Origin: Escherichia phage vB_EcoM-LTH01 | Length of the DNA stretch: 64,000 bases | Sequence record: PP430345 | Direction: 5' to 3' (one strand) | In this document: positions 1 through 26,865 of the stretch, piece after piece | Layout of the letters: the number at the start of each line of letters is the position of its first letter | How positions within the stretch are numbered: the first letter of the stretch is position 1 | Position numbers and translations under genes: made by a program | Notes under the pieces: generated by a model | The model's input: the letters and a program-made list of their open reading frames with translations, nothing else | The model's database searches: none | Told to the model about the DNA's origin: nothing

Positions 1-224
1 GCTCGCCTAAAATTTACCGAAAAATATTTTTAAAATGTTGTTGCTTTCGAATCAAAAACGGTGCTATTATATATTCATGGTGATGAGGACGGTTTCACGA
101 GGCAATCACCACCCCTGCCCGCTATTTTGCAAATGAGAATAATTCTCACCCCCCTGAAAAATTTCTTATCAAAGACCTTGACAAGCCTTATATTTTTGTG
201 CATATAAAAAATTTTTCAATTTTG

Positions 225-700
225 AAATGAAACTGAAATTTGAAAAACCCCTCAAGTATCTGGCCTGTAGCTCAAGTTCTCAATTTAAAATGCAAACTCA
301 AAAATGAAAAACCTCTCAAGTTCCTAATCTCTGTATCGAAAAACCTCTCAAGTTCTCGTGCACAGCTTTCAGGTTACGATCTGAAAAATGAAAAACCCCT
401 CAAGTTCTCAAATTATTTTGGTCACTGGTGTTGTATGTTTGCTTTGTATCATAGGTATACTGGAACAGTAACGTATTGAATCTGGATGGTGAGTCTGTAA
501 GAGGGGCATCAACTAAGTTGATCTAGTGGTGCAGGTATGCAGGAATGACACAGTATGGATGGGGCACGGTGGCAGGAGTCTTAAATTTATCTCAAATAGA
601 ATTTCAAATTGAAATCTGAAAATCCCCCATGAAACAAATATCACAGGGAAATATCTCAAATAGATTTTGGATCTGAAATCTGAATTTGTTTCAGCGAGCA
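225..700. repeat. Repeat-rich non-coding region: four copies of GAAAAACC(C/T)CTCAAGT (241-260, 306-324, 338-357, 390-410) and two copies of ATCTCAAATAGA...ATCTGAA (589-624, 653-688); candidate origin, packaging or regulator-binding array
   Basis: Direct repeats read in the sequence; no convincing ORF; lies beyond the 3' end of the minus-strand block. Confidence 0.6.
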
Positions 701-704
701 AATA

Positions 705-1523
705 TCACTCGTTAAAGAGTGTGTACAGGTCGAACGAAACATCCCCATTCACAGCTTTGAATAGTTGGATCTCTTCTTCTGTTGGGGAAAGCCAGTCTTC
801 AAAGAAAGTTTTAAAGTCCTCCTCTTTAAATGACTTACCCATTTTACTATCCCCTGTTGCGAAACGGATATAGTTTACTAGTTTAAATTTCTGATCTCTT
901 TCTTTACCAAAGAGGATGCTCTCTTTTGTCCAGTTGTTATGGACCATCAAGGAACCATCACAAAAGATATTTAACGTAACTGAAGTATCTTTCTTACCTA
1001 CCCGATTGATGTAACGAGTAAGGGAATCTTTCTCATACTCCCAGACAAAAGCCAGACTACCGAATGCTTTTTTGGATTTAAGATAGGCTAAAGGAAACTG
1101 ATCTACACAGGTATGATCAGCCCTTACAAAACCAGGGTCCATGCTGTCAGTAGCGTCAGCTATTTGGCTGAGTAAGGTTATTGCCTTGTCATCATTTATC
1201 GGGTCTTTTGATGAAGGATCAAAAGCTTCATCAAGAATACGCGATACCTTAGTGCGGTACTCATGAAACTTCGTGATTAGCGCCTCTGACTTTTCAATAT
1301 ATTCTTGAACAGAATCATCAGTATCAAGTTCACGGATCAAGTCTTTCAATCCGTGCACAGCACTTTCAATCTCCTCATTCTCTAGATCTCTTAAAGTGTA
1401 CTCTGCATTCCTGATCATTGTTTTATGATCAAGTGGAGTAGGTGATTGCAAACCATGAGGATTGGTAATATTCATCGGGACAACTTCATAAATGATTAGT
1501 GGGTCAAATTTACGGTAGGCCAT
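705..1523 (-). CDS. hypothetical protein (272 aa)
   Basis: Long ORF in the minus-strand block; no recognisable motif. Confidence 0.65.
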   Translation of the reverse strand: MAYRKFDPLIIYEVVPMNITNPHGLQSPTPLDHKTMIRNAEYTLRDLENEEIESAVHGLKDLIRELDTDDSVQEYIEKSEALITKFHEYRTKVSRILDEAFDPSSKDPINDDKAITLLSQIADATDSMDPGFVRADHTCVDQFPLAYLKSKKAFGSLAFVWEYEKDSLTRYINRVGKKDTSVTLNIFCDGSLMVHNNWTKESILFGKERDQKFKLVNYIRFATGDSKMGKSFKEEDFKTFFEDWLSPTEEEIQLFKAVNGDVSFDLYTLFNE

Positions 1524-1628
1524 GTAAGCTCCTGTATGCGTTTGTGAAGACCTTTTATGCTTGGCAAGGTCATTTATCGTCTTGTGTTTGTTTATGCTTA
1601 CAGGGGCCTGTTTAGGCCCCTTCTTTTG

Positions 1629-1856
1629 TTACTGTCTAATCTCAATAAGGGAAAGCTCGTGTTTTGGAGTGGGGCTGTAGCCTTCCCCATCATCATTGCC
1701 CCAAAATTCGAGAACATTCTTTAAGTTCATCTCTCCCATATCCCCTTCGTACCATTCAAAACCATAAAACTCTTCTGTCTCTAAATTCTCGACAAACAGC
1801 ACAGTCTTTAATTTCAGGTCACGATAGAATCGAAAGTTCTTTGGAAGCTTGTACAT
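1629..1856 (-). CDS. hypothetical protein (75 aa)
   Basis: ORF abutting its neighbours in the same operon. Confidence 0.5.
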   Translation of the reverse strand: MYKLPKNFRFYRDLKLKTVLFVENLETEEFYGFEWYEGDMGEMNLKNVLEFWGNDDGEGYSPTPKHELSLIEIRQ

Positions 1857-2170
1857 TACATCACCTCCAGGTCATTGTCATCACAGTATTTAAGAATCCA
1901 GGCCAATGCCGCATTGAATTCTTGTTCGTGATCAGTGTCCGCAGTTAATGTAAAAACTAACCACATGTCTTTGTTCGTTTCTACCCGAACGTAGTCGGTA
2001 AAACCCTGCTTCATAATTTTACGTAGGAAGTCTTCTTCCGTCAAGGGGTAGTTTACAGAAGTATCAATACCCTCTTCGGTCATACGCTCAAGACTAATGT
2101 CTGCAACGATATTTTTACGTACACTGAAAGTCTTGTCAATAACTACTTGCGTTCTTTCATCGATAATCAT
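1856..2170 (-). CDS. hypothetical protein (104 aa)
   Basis: ORF whose stop overlaps the next start. Confidence 0.55.
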   Translation of the reverse strand: MIIDERTQVVIDKTFSVRKNIVADISLERMTEEGIDTSVNYPLTEEDFLRKIMKQGFTDYVRVETNKDMWLVFTLTADTDHEQEFNAALAWILKYCDDNDLEVM

Positions 2171-2173
2171 CTT

Positions 2174-2794
2174 TTATTCTCCTTTAACCAGTTTAGTAAG
2201 CTGTGCAATGAATTGATCCAGATTGTCCTCTGTGACTTCCGCATCCTTAACTCTGACTGTGCGCTTAATGTTCACTTCAAAAACATCCGTATCTACAACT
2301 TCCTGTTCTTTTTCTACAGGTGCAGGAGTGTAATTATCAAACTTAGCCAATGCTTTCTTTAAGCTATCTTCCTGCAAGGTGAAGTATTTTTCCAAATTAC
2401 TTTGCTTAAGCATAACATAATCGTCAGGATTATCGGAGTTATACAGTCGCCACATATTTGGATGACTTGTTTTGATCTTGTAGTCACCCCATTTATCCCC
2501 CAGCAGATACTGATCATCAATAGCCACTTCACCCCTTGGGATCGCTAGGTTAACGATGTATTCTGCCGACTCCGCTGACCATTGAGGGAAGAATGTGAAA
2601 TACTCTTCGATATCTCTGGATGTTAAGAACTGACCCTCAATACGTGGACCCACCGGACGTAAGTAAGAATCGTTATTCTCAGAAGGTCGAACAATGAATC
2701 GATCACCATGATTTTCAATCATACGTCGGTTAGATGGGTCCATTGAAATAAAATAACTTTTCTTACTTTCTTTCAGTTTTGCATATATAGCCAT
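2174..2794 (-). CDS. hypothetical protein (206 aa)
   Basis: ORF in operon context. Confidence 0.6.
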   Translation of the reverse strand: MAIYAKLKESKKSYFISMDPSNRRMIENHGDRFIVRPSENNDSYLRPVGPRIEGQFLTSRDIEEYFTFFPQWSAESAEYIVNLAIPRGEVAIDDQYLLGDKWGDYKIKTSHPNMWRLYNSDNPDDYVMLKQSNLEKYFTLQEDSLKKALAKFDNYTPAPVEKEQEVVDTDVFEVNIKRTVRVKDAEVTEDNLDQFIAQLTKLVKGE

Positions 2795-2864
2795 TTCTTT
2801 CTCCTCTTTGTTTTGATAACTGAAGTTTAGCTCAAGGGGTGACTCTCGTCAACCCCTTTTGTGA

Positions 2865-3386
2865 TTAATTTGGCTTTATAACTTTACGAACAACATCCAA
2901 AATCTCACTTTGATGCGTATATTCAGTATTGATTTTTGTGGGCCAGTCCAGATACCAAGGTTCTTCTAACTCCCTCAGGGGTTGAAGCGCAAAAGGAACC
3001 CCATGAAGGATGTGATCACGGTCAGGGGCAAACGTCTCCGTATAATCCCAAGCCCATCTCGCCTGCCCTTTAGTTATTGAATCGGCCCGGCGTTGCTTCA
3101 AGATCATCTTCTTAATGAAAACAGGATCTTCATCCTTATCTTCAATAAATTTAGGCGCTCGACCCATACATCCGATAAGGTAGTCATTATCTACACGTTG
3201 GATGAAGGACTCTACACTACCTCCCATTGCATTCCATTGGCCTACCCAAGACTTGCCACTTGAGGTGACTATAAGCTTACCTCTGCCATTCTCGTAGTTC
3301 TCAATGATAACCTCGATAGGGTCGAGCCTTTCTTCCTGGAGTTCTTCTATTCGAACCTTTTTAACTAAGCTTTCTGTGACTTTCAT
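2865..3386 (-). CDS. hypothetical protein (173 aa)
   Basis: ORF in operon context. Confidence 0.6.
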   Translation of the reverse strand: MKVTESLVKKVRIEELQEERLDPIEVIIENYENGRGKLIVTSSGKSWVGQWNAMGGSVESFIQRVDNDYLIGCMGRAPKFIEDKDEDPVFIKKMILKQRRADSITKGQARWAWDYTETFAPDRDHILHGVPFALQPLRELEEPWYLDWPTKINTEYTHQSEILDVVRKVIKPN

Positions 3387-3527
3387 TTCTTTTCCTTACG
3401 CTCTGGAAACTTCCACGCGAAGTACGCCATGTTTCGATTATGCTTCACACCATAATACACTTCATGACCGTATCCGAAAAGATATCCAGCAACAACTAGC
3501 GCGTATTCCCAAAACTTCCACTTGATT

Positions 3528-3935
3528 TTACGGATTGCATTTCCCATGTTTTCTCCCTATTAAGACTTTGTGACGTTTCTGAACGGCTCGCTCTAAAGGA
3601 TTAACCCATTTGGTATTAGTCTTCTTAAGCTTACGTGTAATGTTCCAGACAATGATCTTCTTACCAATATCAGTTCCACTCACCTTTAAAAGAACGGCTT
3701 GTTTGATAGCGCCCCCTCTTACCACAATGTTTGCAATAAGGAAAGACAACAAAGCTAAAGGACCCATCAGGATCACAACAATAAACATGAAGTAGTCCAT
3801 CCCACTTACTTTGCCAGTACCTGCCAAAAGGTCAATGTAAAACCAGATCACAAAAGGAATACACAGTAGATAGATACCGATAAATACCCAATCAACCACT
3901 GTCAGTGCAAACACCATACTCAAAAAAGCATCCAT
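3528..3935 (-). CDS. small membrane protein (135 aa, about three hydrophobic helices)
   Basis: ORF with hydrophobic segments (VFALTVVDWVFIGIYLLCIPFVIWF, FMFIVVILMGPLALLSFLIANIVV). Confidence 0.55.
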   Translation of the reverse strand: MDAFLSMVFALTVVDWVFIGIYLLCIPFVIWFYIDLLAGTGKVSGMDYFMFIVVILMGPLALLSFLIANIVVRGGAIKQAVLLKVSGTDIGKKIIVWNITRKLKKTNTKWVNPLERAVQKRHKVLIGRKHGKCNP

Positions 3936-3944
3936 AATAACCCC

Positions 3945-4046
3945 TTAATGACGACCATAGACATAGGTTTGTGCGACTGCACGTTTACCATCACCACCTG
4001 CATTATCATTTGCAGGAACTACAAACAACCACCATTTAATACCCAT
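3945..4046 (-). CDS. possible tiny ORF (33 aa)
   Basis: GAGGTG ribosome-binding site before ATG, stop immediately before the next gene's binding site; not in the supplied track. Confidence 0.25.
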   Translation of the reverse strand: MGIKWWLFVVPANDNAGGDGKRAVAQTYVYGRH

Positions 4047-4055
4047 ACTCACCTC

Positions 4056-4298
4056 TTAAACAGGATGTTGATCACAATAACCAAATACACCAAATCCATC
4101 AATTAGGATCAGATGGTTGTTCCAGTTGATACGCTCATCAACTCCCTTTTCCACAATACTGATCGAATCAACAGAGAAATTAAACGGCTTACCTAACTCT
4201 TTGTTGATATGATCTACAAGAGATTGTTTTGTACCTTCAATCTGTTTAACAGTTTTCAAACTTTCGATCAATGTACCACGATGTTGACGTACTCTCAT
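4056..4298 (-). CDS. hypothetical protein (80 aa)
   Basis: ORF preceded by GGAGG ribosome-binding site. Confidence 0.55.
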   Translation of the reverse strand: MRVRQHRGTLIESLKTVKQIEGTKQSLVDHINKELGKPFNFSVDSISIVEKGVDERINWNNHLILIDGFGVFGYCDQHPV

Positions 4299-4534
4299 TA
4301 CGACCTCCTCTTAATAAATTCCAAAACTATTGAGTAAAACTTTACCCACTGATCCAACAATCATGAAGATCAATCCCAATGTTAGACAGTATATGTAAAA
4401 CTTATCCAATTGACTTTCCTTCTCTTGTTAACTCTACATCTGTTTCATTGTGGTGTCAACACAATTTTGTGGTGACTTAAAAAATTAAGTACCGAACGAA
4501 TGTGAGTGTGGTTAATTTTTTAATAGATATATAA

Positions 4535-4580
4535 ACCCCGTCGAAGCAACCGAGCAGGTTGAGGGGTTTATCATCTAATA
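4535..4580 (-). terminator. possible stem-loop terminator downstream of the 4619-4990 gene
   Basis: AAACCCC ... GGGGTTT inverted repeat with a long loop and a T/A-rich flank; weak. Confidence 0.3.
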
Positions 4581-4618
4581 TAGTATTGTATGCCTAAATG
4601 GGCATAAAGGAAATGTTG

Positions 4619-4990
4619 TTACTTAGACCAACGTTTCAACGTATTCCTTACCATCGTGTGCATACTTTCCTCATCATGACCTGCTGACCACATTGCCGTA
4701 AGTAACGAGAGCAACCTTACAATATCTGGCTCCTCATCTAACAGACTACCAACCGTAGCGGACAGGAAATCAATATCTTCATCAGCAATACGATCAGGAT
4801 ACAGGAAAGTGTCTTCCTTTACAAGATCTATCGGCTTTCCTGATCCAATCTTATGGCGAGATAAAGTAAATCCTTTCCCGTTAAAGGTGGAGGCCCACCA
4901 TTTTACAGCCTCCGCACTTTCATTAATCATGTTGATAGTCATAACCACACCACGCCTACCAACTGATAACTTGTAAGTATACTCGCTCAA
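4619..4990 (-). CDS. hypothetical protein (123 aa)
   Basis: ORF in operon context. Confidence 0.6.
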   Translation of the reverse strand: MSEYTYKLSVGRRGVVMTINMINESAEAVKWWASTFNGKGFTLSRHKIGSGKPIDLVKEDTFLYPDRIADEDIDFLSATVGSLLDEEPDIVRLLSLLTAMWSAGHDEESMHTMVRNTLKRWSK

Positions 4991-5001
4991 AGATCCTCCC
5001 C

Positions 5002-6540
5002 TTATTTAAGATACTTGTCAAAATCAATTGCCTTGCCAAAAGGCGGGGTGAACGAAGACCCGCGACCTAGGATGATCCAAAGAACATTCTTACCATACTT
5101 TTTGGCCCAATCTTTCTTTTGAGATACATCAGCAAAGTAACCGTCAGTATAGATGATGATCTGATCCATAGGGTCTTTCATTTCATCTAATGCTTCAAAC
5201 ACACAAGAAACATCCGTACCAAATGTGGTCTTGATCTTATAGTTAGCAATCTCATTCACATTCTTCTTCGTATACGTTTCAATGTTACCAACCTTTGTTG
5301 ACCAGCAGGCCATCGTGACCTCAAACTCGTCGTAAAGATTACACAATCCACGAATCTCACGCATTGTTGGTCTTAACAGTTCATCGTTAAATGATCCCGA
5401 CACATCAAAGAAAACACCTGCACGGATAGTCTTCTGTTTATTCTTTGATGGTAAACCAATTGTTTGTCGTCCAGACAAGTAACCTGAGCTACGGAGAGTC
5501 CGAGTTAACGAGTGACTACGGCGTGACAAACGACGATATGATACATCATCTTTAAACAGGCGTTCAATAGTTTTACGCAACAAACGAAGATAGTTAATCT
5601 TTGGTTTACCTGCCGCTTCTACAAAACGTCGTGCATCTTCCGGCGCACCGCTTCCTGCTGCCTGTACGGCATTCTCAATAGCTCGACGCATAACCCCATC
5701 GTTGTACTGGCGTTCTTCTGCTGTTTGCTTGGGCTTCGCTTTACGGTCGATTCCCAGTGCATCTTCGATATCATCACCTTCTGAATCTTCTGGATCACCA
5801 TTCTGGTCCATGTGCTGATCAACACCTTTACGACCTTGACCACCTTCTTCACCATCACCCTCTCCACTTCCAGAACCAGAACCTTTCCCTTTGGATTTTT
5901 CTTTATCATCTTGCTCTTTATTCAGTATTTCATAGATCTGCTCAGTATACATATCTTTGAATCGGAAATCACAGTAAGACCAGGCCATAAATCCAAATTC
6001 AGCATTTTTATCAAATACCGTTCTCTCTCCGGCAGGGAACCAGGCTTTACCTAGCTCATCCCCTTTCTGGTGAATAAGCACAGCCGTTGTATTGATACGG
6101 TGATCCGCTGCAATGTTGTAAAGTTCATGATTAAATCCTTTACCACGAGAGGCGTGATCAGAGATCACATGATCACATTCATGCTCAAGAATAAGAGCAA
6201 GCTCACGAGCAGTCTTTCGACGATAGAAGACATTGATAAACTCAATACCCTCTTTCAGCTTTTTAGGATCTTTCTCAGATTTGGAAAGTCGATCAAGTAC
6301 CAATTTTTTACGTTCTTCTGTCATACCTGCAACGAACTCTGGATGGTAATACAGGTTACGTCCATCAGTCGCCATTGTACTACACCACTCCGTCGCCTTT
6401 TTAACAGGCATAGACGAAAGCATCACCCCGTAGAAGGGTTTAAAACGCATCAGTTGTAGACTAGCAGCCTCAATGATACGTTCTGCTTCAGAGACTTGCA
6501 TTTCAATCATGTTGCTTTCTTCAATCGTCAGTTTTGCCAT
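5002..6540 (-). CDS. metallopeptidase-like (HExxH) plus VWA-like domain protein, partner of the adjacent MoxR-like ATPase
   Basis: N-terminal HECDH (HExxH-type) motif, acidic Gly/Ser-rich linker, C-terminal VWA-like FFDVSGSF (DxSxS) motif; sits directly downstream of the AAA+ ATPase. Confidence 0.7.
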   Translation of the reverse strand: MAKLTIEESNMIEMQVSEAERIIEAASLQLMRFKPFYGVMLSSMPVKKATEWCSTMATDGRNLYYHPEFVAGMTEERKKLVLDRLSKSEKDPKKLKEGIEFINVFYRRKTARELALILEHECDHVISDHASRGKGFNHELYNIAADHRINTTAVLIHQKGDELGKAWFPAGERTVFDKNAEFGFMAWSYCDFRFKDMYTEQIYEILNKEQDDKEKSKGKGSGSGSGEGDGEEGGQGRKGVDQHMDQNGDPEDSEGDDIEDALGIDRKAKPKQTAEERQYNDGVMRRAIENAVQAAGSGAPEDARRFVEAAGKPKINYLRLLRKTIERLFKDDVSYRRLSRRSHSLTRTLRSSGYLSGRQTIGLPSKNKQKTIRAGVFFDVSGSFNDELLRPTMREIRGLCNLYDEFEVTMACWSTKVGNIETYTKKNVNEIANYKIKTTFGTDVSCVFEALDEMKDPMDQIIIYTDGYFADVSQKKDWAKKYGKNVLWIILGRGSSFTPPFGKAIDFDKYLK

Positions 6541-6552
6541 TTCATTTTCTCC

Positions 6553-6585
6553 AAATTAAAAAAGGACACCTCTTTCGAGATGCCC
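6553..6585 (-). terminator. stem-loop with GAAA loop followed by U6, between the MoxR and VWA genes; overlaps a TTGACA-N17-TAATAT promoter-like element (6588-6616, minus)
   Basis: Minus-strand reading GGGCATCTC-GAAA-GAGGTGTCC then TTTTTT. Confidence 0.4.
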
Positions 6586-6620
6586 TTATATTAAGTTAAC
6601 TGTTTTTCGTTGTCAAGAGA

Positions 6621-7850
6621 TTATTCGAATTCTTTAATCAGTTGACCATATCGAGTCATGTATTCCATAACTGCGGCAGAAACAGTCGGGCAACTCTTAC
6701 GCATCAGCGGAATCATTTTCTGACGTTTCGGGTTAACAGTTAGGATAGATGGCTTATCGTTTGGACCACGGAACACGCCCAAGATCAAAGCAATCATCGT
6801 ATCCTTGTTGTTTGCATAATAGTTATTGTACATGAACGTAAGGAAGTTACCTGCACGCTCAAGGAACTTATCATCCGTCATGTCATTATCCATAACCTCA
6901 TCTTCCATGCGACGAAGGCCAGTTTGTGCCAGTACGTAAACAAGGTCGTTCTTACTACGATCAAGTTTATGTTCTTTCACTGCCCCACTAAAGATATCTT
7001 CAATCGGTGGAAGTTCTTTAGCACGTAAATGATAAGCAAGGATCTGTACTTCCAGGCCTTCACCAACTGTACCTGCAAGAGCAACCTCTGCGATAAATTC
7101 ATTAATCTCACCTGCATCATACTTGTACAGAATGTCAGATGCTGTTTTCCATTGACGAGGAGATGAATAAACCGGAGTACTTCGGTTTTCTACGTCACCA
7201 GTATAGAAATGCTCTGGAAACTGCTTCAAGAAACCAATAATGTTCGGGTGCAGACGGAACGGAATCGCATAGTCTTCGATCCACACATCCAGATTATAAT
7301 CAACTTCTGCAATAATCATACGGTTAACCAATGGGCCAGGCATAGAAGTAGTCCCTGCTCCATCAGTATCACGGTTACCTGCACCTACAAACACAGTACC
7401 TTTCGGGAACTTATGCTCACCTGCAACGTGATCAAGAATAACCTGATATGCAGAGTGCTGAGTGCCCAATGGTGCATTTGGCAGTTCATCCAGGAACACG
7501 ATACCTTCCCAATCAGGATCAGTAGGCCAAAAGTTTGGAACTGCATATACGGTACGAGTGACTTCTTTACCAGTTTTCGGATCTGGATAAGAGATCGGAA
7601 TCGGAATACCTGCGATATCTTGTGGCTCTTTATCCGACAGACGAACATCACAAAGGTTATTGCCTACACGATGTGGGAACATGGAATCAGCGATCTGTTT
7701 TACTTTTTCAGACTTACCAAGACCAGCACCACCAAAAAAGAATACGGTCTTTCCGATGGAAGCCCCCAGGCGAATCAGTGGTTCCATATCACGGATACTG
7801 ATACGTTTTTTGAACATGGTTTGGTCCATACGTTGATAAGTTGCTTGCAT
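6621..7850 (-). CDS. MoxR-like AAA+ ATPase
   Basis: Walker A FFFGGAGLGKSEK, Walker B IVFLDELPNAP; adjacent to the VWA protein. Confidence 0.7.
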   Translation of the reverse strand: MQATYQRMDQTMFKKRISIRDMEPLIRLGASIGKTVFFFGGAGLGKSEKVKQIADSMFPHRVGNNLCDVRLSDKEPQDIAGIPIPISYPDPKTGKEVTRTVYAVPNFWPTDPDWEGIVFLDELPNAPLGTQHSAYQVILDHVAGEHKFPKGTVFVGAGNRDTDGAGTTSMPGPLVNRMIIAEVDYNLDVWIEDYAIPFRLHPNIIGFLKQFPEHFYTGDVENRSTPVYSSPRQWKTASDILYKYDAGEINEFIAEVALAGTVGEGLEVQILAYHLRAKELPPIEDIFSGAVKEHKLDRSKNDLVYVLAQTGLRRMEDEVMDNDMTDDKFLERAGNFLTFMYNNYYANNKDTMIALILGVFRGPNDKPSILTVNPKRQKMIPLMRKSCPTVSAAVMEYMTRYGQLIKEFE

Positions 7851-7920
7851 TTTATATCTCCTCTTGTTTTTGATGTGATAAGTATATCTTTTCTATTTCT
7901 TAAGTCAACAAGTTTTTAAA

Positions 7921-8454
7921 TTATTTTGAAAAATTTTTACTTCCCCAACGACCAGTAAACATAAAACCCGCATCTTCAAAAACACCATCAGGATTTTCTT
8001 TGAAGAGTTTAAGGTAGTGTTCTAGAACACCGTCCCACTGCTTTTTATCGAAGTATACAACAGATTCACCTGTCAATACAACACCTTCGTCATAACCATC
8101 TTCCTTTTTACCCATGACCATCACGGTATTCTTTTTACGTCGAATAACCACATTATCATGATAGCCTGCACAACCCCCATGACCACAGCTACAAGTAAGG
8201 AATGATGCAAAAGAAAAACCAAATTGCCGATCTCCCTTGTACGTTGGGTTCATAGCTTCAAGGAAAGAAAACATGGTGTAAACACCTTTCGGTTCAGATC
8301 CATTGATCTTACAACCGAGCTTTGTAATGTCACCTTTTGTTTCTTCAGGGAATTCTTTCCAACCATCAGCGTCTTGTACCCCATAATCACCGTAACGTTC
8401 CAAATCGTCAAAGTATGTTGTTGTGAACGGTTCAATACTCAATACCTTTTTCAT
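7921..8454 (-). CDS. hypothetical protein (177 aa), Cys/His-rich segment
   Basis: ORF; CSCGHGGCAGYH cluster. Confidence 0.6.
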   Translation of the reverse strand: MKKVLSIEPFTTTYFDDLERYGDYGVQDADGWKEFPEETKGDITKLGCKINGSEPKGVYTMFSFLEAMNPTYKGDRQFGFSFASFLTCSCGHGGCAGYHDNVVIRRKKNTVMVMGKKEDGYDEGVVLTGESVVYFDKKQWDGVLEHYLKLFKENPDGVFEDAGFMFTGRWGSKNFSK

Positions 8455-9014
8455 TTAAACTCCTTCCACTTTTTAATAAGTTTCTGAACAAATTCTTTAC
8501 GTTCGTCGAGATAGCTACAATAGGCAAAAGAATCACAATAATCGAGATACCTTCCGATACTTTCATACCAACCAACCATCTCCGTAATCAACAAGTGCAT
8601 TGTTACATACTTCCTGATCCGTTGCAAGTCTTTTTCTGTGGTGCTACAAGTTCGCAGAATATCTAAGTTGTGTTTAAGATCCGCAAGCTTAACATGACAA
8701 GCACCCTCACTCTCTAAAATCCCCTCTAGGTAATCAGATGAAGATTGCTTACGTTTCTTTGTCACTGCATCGACAATCACTAAGGTTCTTTCTGAAATCC
8801 CCTTTTTAAAGAGGTGTTCCATAGTGATTTCAGTATCTTCAATCACATCATGCAAAACTCCTGCTGCCATTAAATCTTCCCTTCCCTTTTGCTGCAATGT
8901 TTGCATCACCTGCAAAGGATGAAGAATATAGATATTCCCCCCTTTATCTACTTGGTCAACATGGGCAGAAGCAGCTACGGATATCGCAATGGCTAACTCT
9001 TTATCTTGACTCAT
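8451..9014 (-). CDS. HD-domain small alarmone hydrolase-like protein (RelA/SpoT-type (p)ppGpp hydrolase fold)
   Basis: HPLQV...AAGVLHDVIEDT and KLADLKHNL, matching the SpoT/Mesh1 hydrolase signature (HD...LHDxxEDT...KLADRLHN). Confidence 0.7.
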   Translation of the reverse strand: MSQDKELAIAISVAASAHVDQVDKGGNIYILHPLQVMQTLQQKGREDLMAAGVLHDVIEDTEITMEHLFKKGISERTLVIVDAVTKKRKQSSSDYLEGILESEGACHVKLADLKHNLDILRTCSTTEKDLQRIRKYVTMHLLITEMVGWYESIGRYLDYCDSFAYCSYLDERKEFVQKLIKKWKEFK

Positions 9015-9076
9015 TTGTTATCTCCTTCTCATTTTAGATGTGCACAGTATAATGAAAATAAAATGCAAATCAAGTA

Positions 9077-9105
9077 TTGATCTTCTCCTCAAGTTCTCGT
9101 ATAGT
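9077..9105 (+). promoter_or_regulatory. sigma70-like promoter (TTGATC-N17-TATAGT) for the plus-strand block, in the divergent intergenic region
   Basis: Hexamers read in the sequence about 30 nt upstream of the 9135 start; spacer contains the CTCAAGTTCTCGT 13-mer. Confidence 0.45.
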
Positions 9106-9134
9106 TAGCACATACAAACGACGAGGGGTTAAAA

Positions 9135-9623
9135 ATGAAACATTTCAATACACGAACTTTACATATGCTCGAAGATCACGTCGATGAAAGAGCCTACGAA
9201 TTCTTTATGTCTGATTACCAGGGCAAAAAGACTTGGCATTCTCAAGCAGAGGGAGCCAAACCTACATTGACAGTAGATGCACGAAACTCTGGTGGTTCTA
9301 TTCTTTGTGGGTATTGCGGTAGAAAAGCATTACCTATACAAAATCATATTTTAAGAGTTGTGGGCCACTGCTGTGTTTGTAAAGATGCAATGGACCAATT
9401 AGAGATAGAAAATGAGGAAGAAAAAGTAAAAGAAGAAATGGAAAAACTTCTTGACAAGCTCCGTGAAGTTAAGCCAAAATTAAACAAAGAAATCCTTAAA
9501 TTAACGATGCAGGAAGTGATGAAAGAAGAGATTCGCCGCATCGAAAATGGTTTCTTTTCAACTAATGAAAATCGTTTCGGTATCCAAATAAATAATGGGG
9601 AAGATTATGTTGAAGAAGATTAA
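9135..9623 (+). CDS. Cys-rich (zinc-ribbon-like) plus coiled-coil protein; first gene of the plus block
   Basis: CGYCG ... CCVC motifs, Glu/Lys-rich coiled-coil C-terminus; GAGGGG ribosome-binding site. Confidence 0.6.
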   Translation: MKHFNTRTLHMLEDHVDERAYEFFMSDYQGKKTWHSQAEGAKPTLTVDARNSGGSILCGYCGRKALPIQNHILRVVGHCCVCKDAMDQLEIENEEEKVKEEMEKLLDKLREVKPKLNKEILKLTMQEVMKEEIRRIENGFFSTNENRFGIQINNGEDYVEED

Positions 9624-9945
9624 AAAGATTAGTAACAAAGTTCTTGACAAGATTGACCGTTTTTGGGATAAAGTTATGGGATGGGAAGATGATGTAGAAA
9701 TTGACACTTCACCAACCCAATTCAATAAATATTTTGAAGAAAAAGTATCAAAAGGGTTGCAAGGTGGAAAAGAAATGTATACACTGGCTATGCAAGGCGG
9801 CAATGGAATACCAACAATAGGTAAGGATCACTACTTCTATGGCGACATTAATGACGCAATTGAAAAAAGAAATAGACTTCAAGGCTCTAATAAAGTAAGA
9901 TTAGAGGTACGAAAAGTTAAAGTATTTATGATGGAGGTAAAATGA
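9607..9945 (+). CDS. hypothetical protein
   Basis: ORF; start taken at the second ATG, which follows a GGGGAAG ribosome-binding site (track start 9595). Confidence 0.55.
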   Translation: MLKKIKKISNKVLDKIDRFWDKVMGWEDDVEIDTSPTQFNKYFEEKVSKGLQGGKEMYTLAMQGGNGIPTIGKDHYFYGDINDAIEKRNRLQGSNKVRLEVRKVKVFMMEVK

Positions 9946-10208
9946 AAAAGATTATTGCTGCGATTTTTATGATATGTTTCATTTCCGGTTGTGATCAAAA
10001 GGGCGTTGTCGATAAAACTACTAATTACATTTTACCGCAAGAAATGAAAGAGGCAGGTTGTAAGATTTATCGTCTCAAAGCTAACCCAGGAGATATGAGT
10101 CTGAATGTGGTGTATTGTCCTCATGCAGATACTCATATCAAGACTTCGAACGGCAAGACAAAGAAAAGCACTTCAGTAGTTACAGGAGATGTTGACTATG
10201 GGTACTGA
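9942..10208 (+). CDS. putative lipoprotein (88 aa)
   Basis: Signal peptide with lipobox ISGC; ATGA start/stop overlap with the upstream gene. Confidence 0.6.
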   Translation: MKKIIAAIFMICFISGCDQKGVVDKTTNYILPQEMKEAGCKIYRLKANPGDMSLNVVYCPHADTHIKTSNGKTKKSTSVVTGDVDYGY

Positions 10209-10464
10209 TTTTGAGAATAATCTTTGTCCACTAGAAAAGTTCTTTGGGAGGGATGTTTACAAAGTTGATCGTGAAGCAATTTCAAAGCACGGTATGCCTA
10301 AGTTTGCAAGTGACACCGTAGTTAAAGTCACTGACCCTGTAAGCCAGTTTGCAAATAAAACTTACAGGGTAAAAGGAATTATGTATTCTTGTACTTTTAA
10401 CACCTGGGCTTATAGAGTTTTACCAGGTATCTATGTCGTAGAAGCTGATTTGGAGGAAATTTAA
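10189..10464 (+). CDS. hypothetical protein (91 aa)
   Basis: ORF in operon. Confidence 0.55.
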   Translation: MLTMGTDFENNLCPLEKFFGRDVYKVDREAISKHGMPKFASDTVVKVTDPVSQFANKTYRVKGIMYSCTFNTWAYRVLPGIYVVEADLEEI

Positions 10465-10721
10465 TGTTAGATCTTATTGTTGGTGTTTTTAGTGCTGACG
10501 TACAGTTTTCAGTGTTTGTTGTGGTTCTTACTGGATTAGGATTGATCGGTTTTGCATTTGTAAGAACTCTTTATAAATATTTCAAAATCGCCTCTGATTT
10601 TTACAAAGGTAAACGTACAAAGCTGAAGGCTTATCACTTTATCTCAGGGTTTGTTGATCTATACTTTCTGATCATTGTTCCTCAGGTAATTTATCACGTT
10701 GTTTCTTTAATTTTTAGTTGA
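10464..10721 (+). CDS. small membrane protein (85 aa)
   Basis: Two hydrophobic helices. Confidence 0.5.
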   Translation: MLDLIVGVFSADVQFSVFVVVLTGLGLIGFAFVRTLYKYFKIASDFYKGKRTKLKAYHFISGFVDLYFLIIVPQVIYHVVSLIFS

Positions 10722-10746
10722 CACCATATCAAGGGTCATGTAATAT
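10718..10746 (+). promoter_or_regulatory. sigma70-like promoter TTGACA-N17-TAATAT, followed by the CCTATCAAAACAAA element
   Basis: Hexamers read directly upstream of the 10777 gene. Confidence 0.5.
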
Positions 10747-10776
10747 GGCCCTATCAAAACAAACAAGGGGAAATAA

Positions 10777-11139
10777 ATGACTAAATCAAACAAGCATCCA
10801 GTAATCTTTAAAATTGCAGATCTTATTAAAGACGAGGCAGAATGGCAGCGATTCAAAGAATACGTTGAACGAGATATCAAATTGTACGGCCTTGATGCAA
10901 TATTTATCGAGCAAATGTCAGCAGTGGAGTATGTTAAGATCTCCAACGAAGAAGTTGAAAGCAAAATGGTAGAGATTTATAAACTGTCAAAACAGAACGG
11001 TATCACAGGGCATTATTATGGTAAACGTGCAGCTTTGAAAACGGCGCTTTATACTTTTATGTATACTAGAAACATCGATCCTAAAATTATTGAAGAGATT
11101 ATTGTTAAGCCACATGAAGAAGAAAAAGGTAATAAGTGA
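10777..11139 (+). CDS. hypothetical protein (120 aa)
   Basis: ORF with AAGGGG ribosome-binding site. Confidence 0.6.
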   Translation: MTKSNKHPVIFKIADLIKDEAEWQRFKEYVERDIKLYGLDAIFIEQMSAVEYVKISNEEVESKMVEIYKLSKQNGITGHYYGKRAALKTALYTFMYTRNIDPKIIEEIIVKPHEEEKGNK

Positions 11140-11297
11140 TGAAGTATTATGCTATACTGTGTCTACATTGCGGAGAGGATGCTCAAATTCATCCGACCTT
11201 ATTTGAAGACAAAGAAAAAGCAGAGGAAATCCGAGCAGAGATTGCCAGTTCCTCTGAAACATTAATTGCAGAAATACAAGAGGTATATACAAAATGA
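11139..11297 (+). CDS. small ORF (52 aa), translationally coupled
   Basis: Fills the gap; TGATG overlap upstream and ATGA overlap downstream; not in the supplied track. Confidence 0.4.
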   Translation: MKYYAILCLHCGEDAQIHPTLFEDKEKAEEIRAEIASSSETLIAEIQEVYTK

Positions 11298-11518
11298 TGA
11301 CATTCCAGGATATTGGCGTAGATTATCAGGCAGAAATTAATATTACACCTTCAACTGAAAAAGGTAAAATCCTAATCGGTATTGACTATTGCGATCGCGA
11401 AGGTTGTGATTCTGTTGGTATTCGTGTTACTCGTGAACAAGCTCGCAATCTGGCAGAAAGTTTAAATAATCTTGCTGATGAGTTGTTCTTGCAGGAACTG
11501 AAAGAAAGACGGGGTTGA
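11294..11518 (+). CDS. hypothetical protein (74 aa)
   Basis: ORF. Confidence 0.55.
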   Translation: MMTFQDIGVDYQAEINITPSTEKGKILIGIDYCDREGCDSVGIRVTREQARNLAESLNNLADELFLQELKERRG

Positions 11519-11522
11519 TGAT

Positions 11523-11723
11523 TTGAAAGATTTAATGGGTATAGAGATCAAAGTTGGTGACAAAGTGGCTTTTACTTATGACGATCGTAAAACCATATTT
11601 AAGGGGATTATCACCAGAATCATCCCGAGTAAGGGTCTGGCAGAAATAGAGTATGTTGACCCAACTTGGACAAGGACCCAAAGAATCCGAAGAACTTCTA
11701 AATACATTGTAAAAATAAAATAG
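11523..11723 (+). CDS. hypothetical protein (66 aa; start uncertain, TTG at 11523 or ATG at 11534)
   Basis: ORF. Confidence 0.45.
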   Translation: MKDLMGIEIKVGDKVAFTYDDRKTIFKGIITRIIPSKGLAEIEYVDPTWTRTQRIRRTSKYIVKIK

Positions 11724-11731
11724 GGGATTTT

Positions 11732-12427
11732 ATGAGAAACGTAATGAAACCCGAAGTAAAATTGTCTGAATCTGGCGTATTTGAGCGTGTAATCCAGACA
11801 CACCCAGCCTATGGGTTGGCATCAATCACTCACCCAACTGGTGGGAATGTGGAAATGTTCGGATCAGACACGACCCATAATCAACGTGTTTGTTTACGTA
11901 TTGATACCGCATACCAGGAGATCTCTTATGGTTTGCCGTCTTATTATACGTCACGAAACTCTCGTGTCATTGAGATTGAATTAACATCTTACCAATGGGC
12001 AGAGTTAGTGGCATCCCACAGTGGACAAGGCGTACCAATCACATTAAGATATATCAAGGGCGATGGATATGTTCCTGGCATTGAGGGACAACAAAATAGT
12101 TCTGACATGATCGGCTTGAACGTGGATAAAGACTTAAAAGATCTTTTAAAGGACCACTTGGAAGCAGTAATTGAAGTCCAGCAACTTATTGAGAAAGGTA
12201 AGGCAACAAAGAAAGAATTGACTGAACTTAAGAATAAGATCACTCGTGTTCATTCAAAGCTGCCGGATATCACTCAACATGCGATCAACGTGTTTAAGGA
12301 AAACTCCGAGGTTGTTAAGGCGAAAGCACAAGCAGAGTTCGAAGCTTCTGTAAATCGTAAGGTTGTAGAGGCAGGCTTGGAAGCTTTAGGTATTGTACCA
12401 TTACAAATAGGGAGTACCGATGATTAA
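11732..12427 (+). CDS. hypothetical protein (231 aa)
   Basis: ORF with GGGGA ribosome-binding site. Confidence 0.65.
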   Translation: MRNVMKPEVKLSESGVFERVIQTHPAYGLASITHPTGGNVEMFGSDTTHNQRVCLRIDTAYQEISYGLPSYYTSRNSRVIEIELTSYQWAELVASHSGQGVPITLRYIKGDGYVPGIEGQQNSSDMIGLNVDKDLKDLLKDHLEAVIEVQQLIEKGKATKKELTELKNKITRVHSKLPDITQHAINVFKENSEVVKAKAQAEFEASVNRKVVEAGLEALGIVPLQIGSTDD

Positions 12428-16120: not shown

Positions 16121-16286
16121 TTTCAGTGATCGCGATGACCATCCAAAGAAAGGTGATATTCTTATAATTGAAGAAATTCACTATGATGATGATTTTTACC
16201 TTGAGAGTGTTATAGCCGTAGCACTAAAAGACAACAAAGGATATCTACTCTACCCATATGAATATGAGGAACTAAATAATGACTAA
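16089..16286 (+). CDS. hypothetical protein (65 aa)
   Basis: ORF. Confidence 0.45.
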   Translation: MKNVKIKLLDDFSDRDDHPKKGDILIIEEIHYDDDFYLESVIAVALKDNKGYLLYPYEYEELNND

Positions 16287-17637
16287 GACAGTGATCGGTA
16301 ACGAAGCAGCGATGCAGGCAATCATGAATGGTGAAAACGTTTTTATCACCGGACCTGGTGGTAGTGGTAAAAGTATGATGATCGCTGCATTGCGTGACTT
16401 CTTTGCCGATAGTTTTCTGTTTGTTGGTCCTACAGGTGTAGCATCATTAAACATCCGTGGTGTTACTGCCCACAAAGCATTTGGTTTGACATTTGGGGTT
16501 ACAACATCTGAAGATTACAAAGCCAAATCCAAAAAGGCATCTATGCTTATGGCATCTGACGCATTAGACGGTATTGTATTTGATGAGATCGGCATGACTC
16601 GAAGTGACAAGCTGAAAGAGATCGATATGAAACTTCGTCACCATCGTAAGTCTGACAAACCTTTTGGTGGCCTACAGGTCATCATGTTTGGTGATGGTTT
16701 CCAGATCAAGCCTGTACTTAAGAAAGAAGAAGTCCCTCTGTTTCGTGAACTACACGGCAAGGAAATCCCTTTTGGATGTGAAACTTGGGAATCTTTGAAT
16801 TTGACCTATGCCTACCTTCCTAAAGTGCATCGTCAAAGTGACCCTGTGTTTGCAGAACACCTGAATAATATCCGTATCGGGAAAAACATCCCTGATGCCG
16901 TTAACTTCTTTAACCAGCGTTGCTTTGGTCGTCCACTTGACGGGGCAGTAACTTTAACTACCACAAACAAGCTGGCAGAAGAGATTAACAACAAAGAGTA
17001 CGCAAAGATTAATGCTGAACAGCATGAATTTAATGCCCGTATTACTGGTGAGTTTGTTGAACGTCCAGTTAATGAAAAACTCTTTCTCAAGGAAGGTCTT
17101 AAAGTAATGATTGTTGTTAACGACAATGATCAGAAGAAGAAAGTGCCTGATTATGTCAACGGTACAGTCGGCATTGTTCGTCGTATCGCAAAAACCTTTG
17201 TTGTTGTAGATATTGATGGCAAGATGGTCCCAATCGGCCCTGCAACATGGAACAACGTCGCTCAAGTACCTGAGAAAAAGATGATGCTTGAAGAGGAAGA
17301 GGTTGATATGCCTGACGGGACTAAAAAGATGATCAAGAAGATGGTTGAAAAGACTGTTCTTGTTGATAAATCTATTGGTGAATACATTCAATACCCATTC
17401 AAGTTGGGCTATGCGATCACTGGTCACAAGGCACAAGGTTTAACTTTAGGTAAGGTAAACATCGATCTCGGCTTTGGTACTTTCACACCTGGTCAAGCAT
17501 ATGTTATGCTTTCCCGTGCCACGAGTGTAGAAGGTCTTCGCCTTTTGAAACGCTTACGAGTAAAAGATATCATTGTTGACCAAGATGTTGTAAACTTCTA
17601 TCACGAGAAGTTCCCCAGTATCTTCAAGGATCAATAA
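16279..17637 (+). CDS. SF1B DNA helicase (Dda/PIF1/RecD-like)
   Basis: Walker A ITGPGGSGKS, Walker B IVFDEIG, C-terminal ITGHKAQGLT motif. Confidence 0.75.
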   Translation: MTKTVIGNEAAMQAIMNGENVFITGPGGSGKSMMIAALRDFFADSFLFVGPTGVASLNIRGVTAHKAFGLTFGVTTSEDYKAKSKKASMLMASDALDGIVFDEIGMTRSDKLKEIDMKLRHHRKSDKPFGGLQVIMFGDGFQIKPVLKKEEVPLFRELHGKEIPFGCETWESLNLTYAYLPKVHRQSDPVFAEHLNNIRIGKNIPDAVNFFNQRCFGRPLDGAVTLTTTNKLAEEINNKEYAKINAEQHEFNARITGEFVERPVNEKLFLKEGLKVMIVVNDNDQKKKVPDYVNGTVGIVRRIAKTFVVVDIDGKMVPIGPATWNNVAQVPEKKMMLEEEEVDMPDGTKKMIKKMVEKTVLVDKSIGEYIQYPFKLGYAITGHKAQGLTLGKVNIDLGFGTFTPGQAYVMLSRATSVEGLRLLKRLRVKDIIVDQDVVNFYHEKFPSIFKDQ

Positions 17638-19035: not shown

Positions 19036-19193
19036 TGGACGTTAAGATCTTATCATATACAAATCTATTGGCTCTTCAAAAATTTATACTGAAGCATTAC
19101 GATTACGGTTATAAATTGATTGGTCCTGTAACAACAGGTATTAATTCAAACGGTAACACTATTTATTTGGCGACAATGATCAAGGAGCAGTAA
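19035..19193 (+). CDS. small ORF (52 aa), translationally coupled
   Basis: TGATG overlap upstream, TAATG overlap with the primase start; not in the supplied track. Confidence 0.4.
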   Translation: MDVKILSYTNLLALQKFILKHYDYGYKLIGPVTTGINSNGNTIYLATMIKEQ

Positions 19194-21238
19194 TGAGCAC
19201 TATTGGCGAAAGTCTGTTTGGCGGTTATAAGTTTGGACATAAAAATCCTAAAGCTTCAGTAGCACGTAATTATGGTGGTGGTGTGTCTCGTGTGGAAGAA
19301 ACAGTTGAAGACGTATTGACTTATCCGTGTAAAAGTATCCCTGAGCGTGGTATCGACGAAAAGACAGCTAAACGATTTGGTATTCGTACCAAGTTGTCAG
19401 CTAAAGACGGTATGACACCAGAGGCGCATTATTTTCCGTACACATTGGAAGGTAAGGTTGTAGGTTTTAAGAAGCGTGATCTTACGATCCCTAAGCAACA
19501 GAAAGGTCACTTTACAACTATTGGTTTCCAATCTGTGGCTTGTGATATGTTTGGGCTGGAAGGTGCAAATAAGTCTTCCAAACGTATGATCTTTATCACT
19601 GAAGGTGAATACGATGCTGCAATCTTGTGGCAGGTATTGACAGAGAAGTACAAACCGAAGGATGGTTCCACCCGTAAACCAAACTTCACAGTTGTATCTA
19701 TCTCTAACGGTACATCAAATGCCGTGCAAAACTTATCACAGAAGAATAACTATAAGCTTCTGAGTAAGTTTGAAGAGATTATCGTAGCTTTCGATGCTGA
19801 CCGTGCGACAGAAGCAGAGAAGGCCAAAGGGATCATGAAAGGTAAAGATGCAGTTGCAGCGGTATACTCTGTAATTCCACAAATGAAGGTCGTGGATATT
19901 CCAGAAGATATGGACCCTTGCGATATGTATAACAAAGGTCTTTCTGATCAGTTGTTTTGGGCTGCAATGAAGCCAAAAGAATATGTGCCTGATGGTTTCT
20001 CGACTTATTCACAGTTCCGCGAAAAGGCACATGAGATCCCTAAACTCGGCAAGAAGTTCCCTTGGCCCACCATGACCAAGCTTACTTTAGGCCGTCGCCC
20101 AGGTGAAGGTTACTTTATCGGGGCAGGGGTCAAAATGGGCAAGAGTGAACTTCTTAACCAGATGGTAGAGCACATCACAGGTATTGAGAAGTCAAAGGCT
20201 GCGGTGTTTAAGTTCGAAGAAGAGAACGAAATTACCTGTAAAAAGATCGCAGGTAAGCGTTATCATAAAGACTTTGTTAACGCAGAAAAGGTAATGATTC
20301 CTCAAGAAGATGGAACTTTCCGTGACATTTGGGGTAATGAAGTATTTGAAGGGCAACGTGGCTACTTTAAGCAAGAAGAACTGATCAAAGCTACAGATGA
20401 GGTTGGTGATAGTGTCATCTATTATAACAACTATGGTCGTGCAGTATGGGATGAACTGAAAGGTGCTATCCGTCACGCAGTGATTGTAGAAGGTTGTGAA
20501 GATATCTTTATTGACCCGATCACTCGTCTTGTGCAAGGTATGAGTGCTTCCGAAGCTAACCAGGAGCTGGAACGATTCTCGGATGAGATCTCTAAACTGG
20601 CAAAAGAGCTTGGCTTTACTTATTATTGCTTCTGTCACCTTAACAAGCCTGAATCTGGTAAGCCTCATGAATTTGGTGGTCAAGTCCAGTCGGCACAGTT
20701 TGCTGGTAGCCGTGCAATGATGCGTAACACTTATTACATGTGGGGTATTGAACGTAACAAAGATCCAGAACTCCCGATGAAACAACGTAACACTTCTTAC
20801 TTTGTTATTCTAGATGACCGTAAACACGGTCGTGCTGGTAAATTCCCTGTATTCTATGACATTGATACAGGTGATTATCTGGAACCGCCAGAGGGCTTCT
20901 TAGAGAGTCCTTATGAAACTCTTCGTGAGTGGTATGCCGCTCATCCAGAAGATGATCATCGTTCTCCAGACTTCAAGCCTAAGGCAGCAGAGATTCAACC
21001 CCTATCTGAACAAAACAGTGATCTCACTCGTTCAGATATTAAAGAGGAAGATATTCCTGAGCCGGATGATAACTTCCTGCGTGAGCAAGAGGAAGAGATC
21101 AAGAAGGTTATGGAAGAAATGGAACAACCCTCAGAAGAACCTACATGGGAGCAACAAAGTATCGTTGAATCCGCAGGTGATATTCCTGATGTGCCGGACA
21201 CAGAGCCGGATGATTGGGACGACAACGCACCTTTCTGA
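19193..21238 (+). CDS. bifunctional DNA primase/helicase (T7 gp4-like: Toprim primase plus DnaB-family helicase)
   Basis: Toprim-like IFITEGEYDAAILW; helicase Walker A GAGVKMGKSEL; 681 aa. Confidence 0.75.
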   Translation: MSTIGESLFGGYKFGHKNPKASVARNYGGGVSRVEETVEDVLTYPCKSIPERGIDEKTAKRFGIRTKLSAKDGMTPEAHYFPYTLEGKVVGFKKRDLTIPKQQKGHFTTIGFQSVACDMFGLEGANKSSKRMIFITEGEYDAAILWQVLTEKYKPKDGSTRKPNFTVVSISNGTSNAVQNLSQKNNYKLLSKFEEIIVAFDADRATEAEKAKGIMKGKDAVAAVYSVIPQMKVVDIPEDMDPCDMYNKGLSDQLFWAAMKPKEYVPDGFSTYSQFREKAHEIPKLGKKFPWPTMTKLTLGRRPGEGYFIGAGVKMGKSELLNQMVEHITGIEKSKAAVFKFEEENEITCKKIAGKRYHKDFVNAEKVMIPQEDGTFRDIWGNEVFEGQRGYFKQEELIKATDEVGDSVIYYNNYGRAVWDELKGAIRHAVIVEGCEDIFIDPITRLVQGMSASEANQELERFSDEISKLAKELGFTYYCFCHLNKPESGKPHEFGGQVQSAQFAGSRAMMRNTYYMWGIERNKDPELPMKQRNTSYFVILDDRKHGRAGKFPVFYDIDTGDYLEPPEGFLESPYETLREWYAAHPEDDHRSPDFKPKAAEIQPLSEQNSDLTRSDIKEEDIPEPDDNFLREQEEEIKKVMEEMEQPSEEPTWEQQSIVESAGDIPDVPDTEPDDWDDNAPF

Positions 21239-26792: not shown

Positions 26793-26865
26793 TAACCTAG
26801 CCGAAGGGTAATACCTCCGGCTGGGCTTTGTTTTAGTCTAGTTGGAGTTTAAAGAAGGAGAAAAA

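Follow-up and report, generated by a model that had tools for sequence, protein, structure and literature searches.

A word from a repeat array recurs in the spacer of an early promoter of a Septuagintavirus-like phage: a probable shared site for one phage protein

The DNA considered here is a stretch of 64,000 nucleotides from Escherichia phage vB_EcoM-LTH01 (sequence record PP430345), analysed as a whole and hereafter called the window. It raises a simple question: why does a 13-mer from an array of short repeats near the left end of the window recur 8.7 kb away, inside the promoter of the replication-gene block? This promoter, designated P(+), is of the sigma-70 type and heads that block on the plus strand. 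We consider it probable (roughly 70%) that one phage-encoded, sequence-specific protein reads both the array and an operator in P(+), where it would compete with RNA polymerase, the array plausibly being an origin or a copy-control element.

The 13-mer, CTCAAGTTCTCGT, has exactly two matches in the window, both on the plus strand. An earlier inspection of the letters alone (the sequence-only reading) had located the first correctly at 347-359 and the second at 9087-9099, one nucleotide to the left of its actual position, 9088-9100. It had also placed this second copy exactly between the two promoter hexamers, which holds for 12 of the 13 bases (they fill the 3' two-thirds of the spacer), whereas the final T is the first base of TATAGT. 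The array consists of five copies in the same orientation, with CTCAAG starting at 251, 271, 315, 347 and 399 (table 1). Four of the five display the 20-nt form GAAAAACCyCTCAAGTTCTC, and the sites are direct, same-strand and non-palindromic throughout. The site at P(+) is asymmetric too and present as a single copy; compared with the array consensus CCyCTCAAGTTCTC, the proposed operator departs at one position in the window and agrees fully in five relatives.

The hexamers of P(+) match at 9 of 12 positions with 17-nt spacing, and an ATG with the ribosome site GAGG follows 30 nt past the -10 hexamer; transcription would start near 9112. Since a scan for sigma-70 promoters was not enriched over shuffles (66 found versus 54 expected), the identification of P(+) rests on its position and its conservation across genera. 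The centre of the operator lies approximately 50 bp upstream of the presumed start of a divergent promoter-like site serving the minus-strand block. As the promoter copy stands upstream of both start sites, an RNA-level role linking array and promoter is ruled out.

Over its first 12 kb, the window aligns at full length with five E. coli phages, UPEC06, A7_1, A5-4, A73 and W70 (93.7-96.2% identity), all classed as Vequintavirinae in GenBank. Two of them, A73 and A5-4, have recently been assigned to the genus Septuagintavirus, with A7_1 and W70 grouped alongside, while UPEC06 is left unclassified by one of the two papers concerned (PMC12942863, PMC13538427). By sequence similarity, the window is that of a Septuagintavirus-like phage of the Vequintavirinae. 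All five relatives exceed the window in the length of the promoter match: it extends to 14 nt in A7_1, A73 and A5-4 (CCCCTCAAGTTCTCGT), and the promoter of UPEC06 and W70, CCTCTCAAGTTCTCGT, has a 16-nt identity with array copy 4. The variable promoter positions, 9086 and 9087, include the position that varies among the array copies. Across the six genomes (93-96% identical), a single position out of 55 is variable in the array cores, against 67 of 499 in the rest of that non-coding region (Fisher p=0.005), and 9088-9109 and 9032-9064 are invariant. The cores are thus more strongly conserved than the surrounding non-coding DNA.

Chance expectations were computed with an order-2 Markov model on both strands. 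The 13-mer is expected 0.0024 times per window and 0.0055 times per 145-kb genome, its 11-mer core 0.04 and 0.10 times, respectively, and the 14-mer CCCCTCAAGTTCTC 0.0008 times per 145-kb genome. Genome-wide counts were made in the complete genome of A7_1, a 96% identical relative. The sequence-only reading had named in advance what would count against it, namely a 13-mer found across the full genome as often as chance predicts; in A7_1 the 13-mer is confined to the array and the promoter. That genome contains four copies of the 11-mer, three belonging to the array and the fourth to the promoter; for the 14-mer, two array copies and the promoter copy compare with about 0.001 expected. A repeated 13-mer alone means little, because the window contains approximately 295 direct 13-mer pairs, and it is not very unlikely that some 13-mer of an array of about 190 nt should recur somewhere; both points would also suit a coincidence. 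Single-genome statistics are suggestive and moderate, not decisive, and the argument is carried by the placement of the site and by covariation across genera.

Three further look-alikes in the window were put down to chance: an 11-mer at 44846-44856 on the minus strand, which lies in coding DNA and is absent from A7_1; a near-copy of the array core at 17257-17271 on the plus strand, inside the helicase gene; and CTCAAGG at 2831, which had been put forward as a related site and is indeed present, but carries no weight as evidence in a window where the hexamer CTCAAG occurs 59 times. This CTCAAGG is contained in a hairpin, AAGGGGTGactctcgtCAACCCCTT at 2824-2858, that overlaps the -35 hexamer of a minus-strand promoter-like sequence (TTGACG-17-TAAACT); in A7_1, many small early genes are likewise preceded by a hairpin next to a promoter.

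The nearest other genus is Certrevirus, whose MoxR ATPase is 69-76% identical, against 37-38% in PVP-SE1-/rV5-like phages. Gene order is retained in CR9, KaOmega and PcCB7V: a non-coding region of 0.8-1 kb stands beside the homologue of the 272-aa gene that borders the array region of the window, and a divergent control region about 11-12 kb away precedes the homologue of the 162-aa gene that follows P(+). The layout of the Certrevirus array is likewise homologous, with an A-rich left flank, full then partial copies, and caaatt after the last copy. The Certrevirus array word is (T)CGATCGAGAC(CC), which in these three phages reads (T)CGATCGAGACCC(C/T), also written TCGATCGAGACCC, and their homologous promoter is TTGATT-tctcGATCGAGACCCTa-TATAGT. 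When the two 17-nt spacers are aligned without gaps, CTCAAG and ATCGAG fall in identical register; the 11-nt words differ at six positions, changed in array and promoter alike. Each 30-kb Certrevirus locus contains GATCGAGAC exactly four times, thrice in the array and once in the promoter, on a single strand. The promoter site of CR9 equals the array copies at 19.1 bits, whereas the best other site reaches 11.9. The sequence GATCGAG is also found in the corresponding spacer of CR3, phiTE and two IMG/VR contigs, with a slightly variable 3' end (GAGACTTGG, GAGTACCTG). Altogether, seven of the eight Certrevirus phages examined carry their own array word in the homologous promoter spacer.

A third word, ATTATTTAAAGTT, comes from Tr1, a Citrobacter phage of the Stephanstirmvirinae. 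The copies in its array are AATTATTTAAAGTTTTTCTAC, and its promoter, TTGACT-ctaaATTATTTAAAGT-TATTAT, heads an operon with the homologue of the 162-aa gene in second place. Among 64,862 positions of this locus, the promoter site ranks third, directly after two array copies (22.5 bits versus 13.8 for the next site). Homologous arrays are also present in PVP-SE1 and in Stephanstirmvirinae phages; a weak likeness of Stephanstirmvirinae spacers to their own array word was lost on weight-matrix scoring. The region could not be located in rV5, where gene order differs, and a scan of IMG/VR for more relatives with TTGATY-N5-CTCAAGTTCTC returned 14 matches, all of them unrelated chance occurrences.

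Three unrelated words, each in the corresponding spacer of its own lineage, are more than chance can explain and make a common reader the most economical explanation, and recombination cannot keep the sites alike because 14 bp is too short for it. The suggestion of the sequence-only reading that the array and the early promoter hold a common protein-binding motif thereby gains support from the covariation in Certrevirus and Tr1, as it does from the genome-wide count and the conservation of the cores.

From these observations we infer a protein whose target, CCyCTCAAGTTCTC, is asymmetric and some 14 bp long and is present five times in the array and a sixth time within the P(+) spacer. Occupying about -27 to -12 of the promoter, the protein would compete with RNA polymerase, and its accumulation after infection would turn P(+) down. 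Repression is the default reading because a protein bound there would exclude polymerase from an otherwise good promoter. The array would serve as the main docking place of this protein; its most plausible identity is a replication origin of the iteron type or a copy-control element, and expression of the replication genes would then depend on how far the array is occupied. Five same-strand copies are consistent with an iteron-type origin, as are their in-phase spacing in this genus (0, 1.9, 6.1, 9.1 and 14.1 helical turns in the window) and an adjoining 60-bp tract of 15-20% GC, where the DNA might unwind should the array be an origin. The minimum of GC skew near 9 kb coincides with the switch in gene orientation and is uninformative on the origin, since it tracks that switch.

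Several observations weigh against this proposal. In a weight matrix built from the five heterogeneous array copies, the promoter site ranks only 7th in the window (14.6 bits) and only 4th in A7_1 (18.3 bits), where one coding-region site scores 18.4. GATCGAGWAC forms an array of three copies in PVP-SE1, whose 146-kb genome contains no further copy, at a promoter or elsewhere; one Certrevirus-like contig with a GATCGAGACCCC array has an unrelated promoter spacer; and phi92, KP2025, 05F01, PsgM04F and another contig have AT-rich arrays and no significant promoter site. The helical phasing fails in Certrevirus (0, 6.0 and 13.4 turns) and in PVP-SE1 (0, 6.4 and 13.5 turns). For the DnaA box TTWTNCACA, no match was found in 1-720, and the window contains three where nine are expected. 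Searches of the candidate binding proteins (see below) gave no match in Pfam, NCBIfam, PHROG functions or the Protein Data Bank (PDB), and their AlphaFold models are unusable (pLDDT 52.6 for the 162-aa and 36.1 for the 272-aa protein). Finally, the literature searched for this genus holds no transcription or replication experiments. The phasing, the DnaA boxes and the lack of an initiator-like protein bear on the array as origin in particular. Because arrays occur without a promoter copy, the array must have a function of its own, and the copy at P(+) would be an optional, lineage-specific connection.

This independent role of the array also favours a serious rival, possible though not the reading that we prefer, in which the array and P(+) do share one protein, but the array works as a transcriptional control region or a regulator sink and not as an origin. 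It could, for example, act on the promoters and small conserved transcripts of the non-coding region as a roadblock or silencer, or titrate the regulator and thereby set how much of it is free to act at P(+). The several promoter-like sites and conserved short units of the non-coding region are in keeping with such a role, as is the failure to find an initiator-like protein, a DnaA box or helical phasing across genera. However, the combination seen here is typical of an origin: direct repeats that border strongly AT-rich DNA, located where the non-coding sequence of a phage encoding its own replisome is longest. The operon regulated is, moreover, the replication block itself. The tests made here do not separate a purely transcriptional array from an origin.

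It is unlikely that the bound protein activates transcription, either by remodelling the spacer of P(+) or by acting from about -50 on the divergent promoter of the minus-strand block. The distance of roughly 50 bp between the operator centre and the start of the minus promoter makes an effect there conceivable, about -50 being a position used by upstream activators. However, P(+) has good hexamers and already the optimal 17-nt spacer, its operator lacks symmetry, and polymerase would normally be kept out by a protein that covers -27 to -12.

We regard as very improbable that the array units are decayed copies of the promoter, or sites for an RNA polymerase of phage-modified specificity. The idea arises because TTGAAA, ATGAAA or TCGAAA stands upstream of CTCAAG in the array at the spacing of TTGATC in P(+), and the units thereby resemble the left two-thirds of the promoter. 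However, none of the five copies is followed by a -10-like hexamer at the appropriate distance (GCCTGT, ATTTAA, ATCTCT, TGCACA and AATTAT are found instead), the word is absent from about 30 other early-promoter regions of A7_1, and the A-rich left flank is common to the arrays of genera whose promoters differ.

Least credible of all is a chance match or a functionless leftover of duplication at P(+): a few coding-region sites match the weight-matrix score of the window promoter and several related phages lack the promoter copy, but three words, each expected 0.002-0.004 times per 30-kb locus and far less per spacer, sit in corresponding 17-nt spacers, the match reaches 14-16 nt in relatives with significantly conserved cores, and gene conversion could not keep sites alike over as little as 14 bp.

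Which protein might read these sites? Two weak candidates emerge. The first is the 162-aa protein, whose signature CxYCG...GHCCVC is invariant. In each of the three lineages, its gene follows the motif-bearing promoter in first or second place. The protein is absent from PVP-SE1 and from the phi92 locus, neither of which has a promoter copy; it occurs without such a copy in KP2025 and others, and in PVP-SE1 an array occurs without it. The second is the 272-aa protein, which has diverged further than any other shared protein: its identity to CR9 is 22.7%, whereas that of its neighbours is 31-69%. A PTEEEI-LF motif of this protein is kept in all genera. Homologues of the two candidates in a large protein index number only 6 and 1. 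Pfam searches of about 50 window proteins, and PHROGs and NCBIfam searches of the candidates, revealed nothing DNA-binding; PDB sequence and profile searches gave no match for either candidate. No Rep_3 or winged-helix initiator was matched for the neighbouring 272-aa protein or the other proteins tested, and no ParB-like protein was found among the approximately 50 window proteins scanned. An open reading frame (ORF) of 80 aa was also considered as the binder and dropped, as Certrevirus is without it. It lies on the plus strand, alone among minus-strand genes, about 130-370 nt left of the window (L001 5634-5876); it is conserved in phi92 (gp224) and PVP-SE1 (gp201), has no family match, and includes a stretch, GGTVYQVASATGLDVNTILNL, that looks helix-turn-helix-like.

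A more ambitious version of our proposal is only tentative: the array would be the origin of these virulent phages of about 145 kb, and an unrecognised, fast-evolving initiator (maybe the 272-aa or the zinc-ribbon protein) would both fire that origin and shut the replication operon, the three words then being specificity switches.

Comparisons with the closest known systems rest on established knowledge. Iteron replicons whose initiators are autoregulated (P1 RepA with oriR and incA, F RepE, pSC101 RepA, R6K pi) share with the present locus same-orientation repeats of about 20 bp beside an AT-rich tract; in them, too, an extra repeat over the promoter of the replication gene couples occupancy to expression, and a separate cluster can act as a sink. 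Here, by contrast, a single direct copy lies at a promoter 8.7 kb from the array, instead of a half-repeat in inverted orientation or a promoter that lies inside the origin, and the setting is a virulent phage of about 143 kb with its own replisome, a putative origin without DnaA boxes, and no Rep_3-like initiator found. SPP1 G38P (oriL and oriR) and P4 alpha (ori and crr) illustrate how one protein can use the same repeat at loci kilobases apart, although both of their loci serve replication, whereas the second locus here is one copy in a promoter spacer. With SV40 large T antigen (origin and early promoter) and EBNA1 (oriP repeat family and Qp promoter), an array binds the origin protein and extra sites at the promoter of the early or replication genes provide negative feedback, but the proteins and hosts are unrelated and the analogy is one of circuit design only. 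The C1 repressor of P1 resembles the proposed reader in its asymmetric operator (17 bp in P1), present as a single copy over a promoter core; P1, however, is temperate and has many dispersed operators and no tandem array, whereas five of the six sites are clustered here. T4 MotA likewise uses a phage-specific word upstream of a sigma-70 -10 element, but the MotA box, at about -30, takes the place of the -35 element and does so at many promoters, whereas the -35 hexamer is intact here and the word occurs at one promoter genome-wide.

Three such models were rejected for the present site. Promoters of the MerR type have 19-20 nt spacers and palindromic operators, and activation through the spacer in that manner was discarded on account of the 17-nt spacer and the asymmetric site. 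An array of the ParB/KorB type was set aside, the sites being direct and non-palindromic with no ParB-like match among the window proteins scanned, and a middle promoter of the T4 MotA type was set aside given the -35 hexamer and the occurrence of the word at only one promoter.

The coordinates of all these features, and of the genes and blocks around them, are collected in table 1. The window contains no tRNAs.

Table 1. Coordinates, in window numbering, of the promoter, the array and the surrounding features (negative positions lie to the left of the window).
Feature	Position	Strand	Remarks
-35 hexamer TTGATC of P(+)	9077-9082	+	invariant in six genomes; Certrevirus counterpart TTGATT
17-nt spacer of P(+)	9083-9099	+	
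-10 hexamer TATAGT of P(+)	9100-9105	+	identical in most Certrevirus promoters
Proposed operator CTCCTCAAGTTCTCGT	9085-9100	+	inside the spacer of P(+); about -27 to -12 from the presumed start
Divergent minus-block promoter-like site TTGATT-16-TATACT	9046-9073	-	back to back with P(+)
Array copy 1, GAAAAACCC-CTCAAGTATCT	242-261	+	3' half degenerate
Array copy 2, core CTCAAGTTCTC	271-281	+	without GAAAAACC flank; 20 bp past copy 1
Array copy 3, GAAAAACCT-CTCAAGTTCCT	306-325	+	
Array copy 4, GAAAAACCT-CTCAAGTTCTCGT	338-359	+	contains the 13-mer (347-359)
Array copy 5, GAAAAACCC-CTCAAGTTCTC	390-409	+	
AT-rich tract, 15-20% GC	181-240		directly left of copy 1; from composition profile
Non-coding region, about 1 kb	about -370 to 704		holds the array
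272-aa protein	705-1523	-	beside the non-coding region of the array, syntenic in Certrevirus; weak candidate
Minus-strand block	705-9014	-	HD-domain protein, MoxR ATPase, DUF2201 protein
Divergent control region, 120 bp	9015-9134		
162-aa protein, first gene behind P(+)	9135-9623	+	zinc-ribbon signature CxxC...CCxC, then long helix; weak candidate
Plus-strand block, about 29 kb	9135 to about 38 kb	+	helicase, primase-helicase, DNA polymerase
PIF1-like helicase	16279-17637	+	Pfam match, annotation of relatives
DnaB/Toprim primase-helicase	19193-21238	+	Pfam match, annotation of relatives
Family A DNA polymerase	26842-29202	+	Pfam match, annotation of relatives

The non-coding region holds further elements beside the array. 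At 41-166 of the window, a promoter-like sequence (TTGCTT-18-TATTAT) is followed by an element of about 100 nt with approximately 75% identity to unannotated sequence in Cronobacter phages and in PVP-SE1-like and phi92-like phages. The conserved part at 61-166 displays no compensatory base pairs in a six-sequence alignment and has no Rfam match; more generally, Rfam gave no match in 1-12000 or in the region upstream of the window. A palindrome, ATGAGAATAATTCTCA, lies at 132-147, and similar ones (GAGAATGATTCTC and GATAATGATT types) are present in two to five copies in the same region of related phages (L010 2510-2600, L013 11510-11620, L012 16085-16105). These palindromes appear to resemble the E. 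coli Fur box, which would suggest iron-responsive or repressor control of the non-coding region.

A second conserved unit just left of the window (L001 5878-6010, ending at window 1-13) comprises a strong promoter followed by about 110 nt; its core, CGCCACCCCACGGCGAAAAGGCGGGGCTAAC, is common to Certrevirus, PVP-SE1, phi92 and others and has no Rfam match. On the other side of the array, the ORF-free stretch between the two repeat sets, 420-590, has a GC skew of +0.3 to +0.5, unlike its surroundings, and may be a structured transcript from a promoter-like site at 177-207. The second repeat set, at 588-708, is a direct pair of 57 nt, 64 nt apart (TATCTCAAATAGA...AAATATCAC), just before the stop of the 272-aa gene, and is approximately 75% conserved in CR3-like phages.

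Farther along the window, a MoxR-type ATPase and a DUF2201 metallopeptidase/VWA-like protein are paired at 5002-7850; A7_1 and A5-4 have a gene for an HNH homing endonuclease between the two (L002 7811-8305), which the window lacks. Three tandem paralogues of the FRD2 family (Pfam PF03197) occupy 30290-31519.

In the library searched, the literature on the genus and the subfamily makes no mention of the repeats or of the promoter. A transposon study of a related phage reported an intergenic region of about 2 kb that tolerates no insertions (10.1101/2025.11.20.689424).

Vequintavirinae and their relatives are widely isolated as candidates for therapy, yet their regulation and origins are essentially unstudied and most of their genes are 'hypothetical'. 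For this poorly studied group, the arrangement described here is a well-supported new instance of a familiar regulatory design. It amounts to a testable circuit of six genomic sites, probably with one reader, that connects the promoter of the replication block with the largest non-coding region, and the natural specificity variants provide ready-made controls. It also points to where the origin may be, and the sites offer DNA bait for a binding protein that lies beyond the reach of sequence and fold searches. If the more ambitious version outlined above were true, the three words of Septuagintavirus, Certrevirus and Tr1 would define replication or regulatory incompatibility groups among related phages co-infecting the same host.

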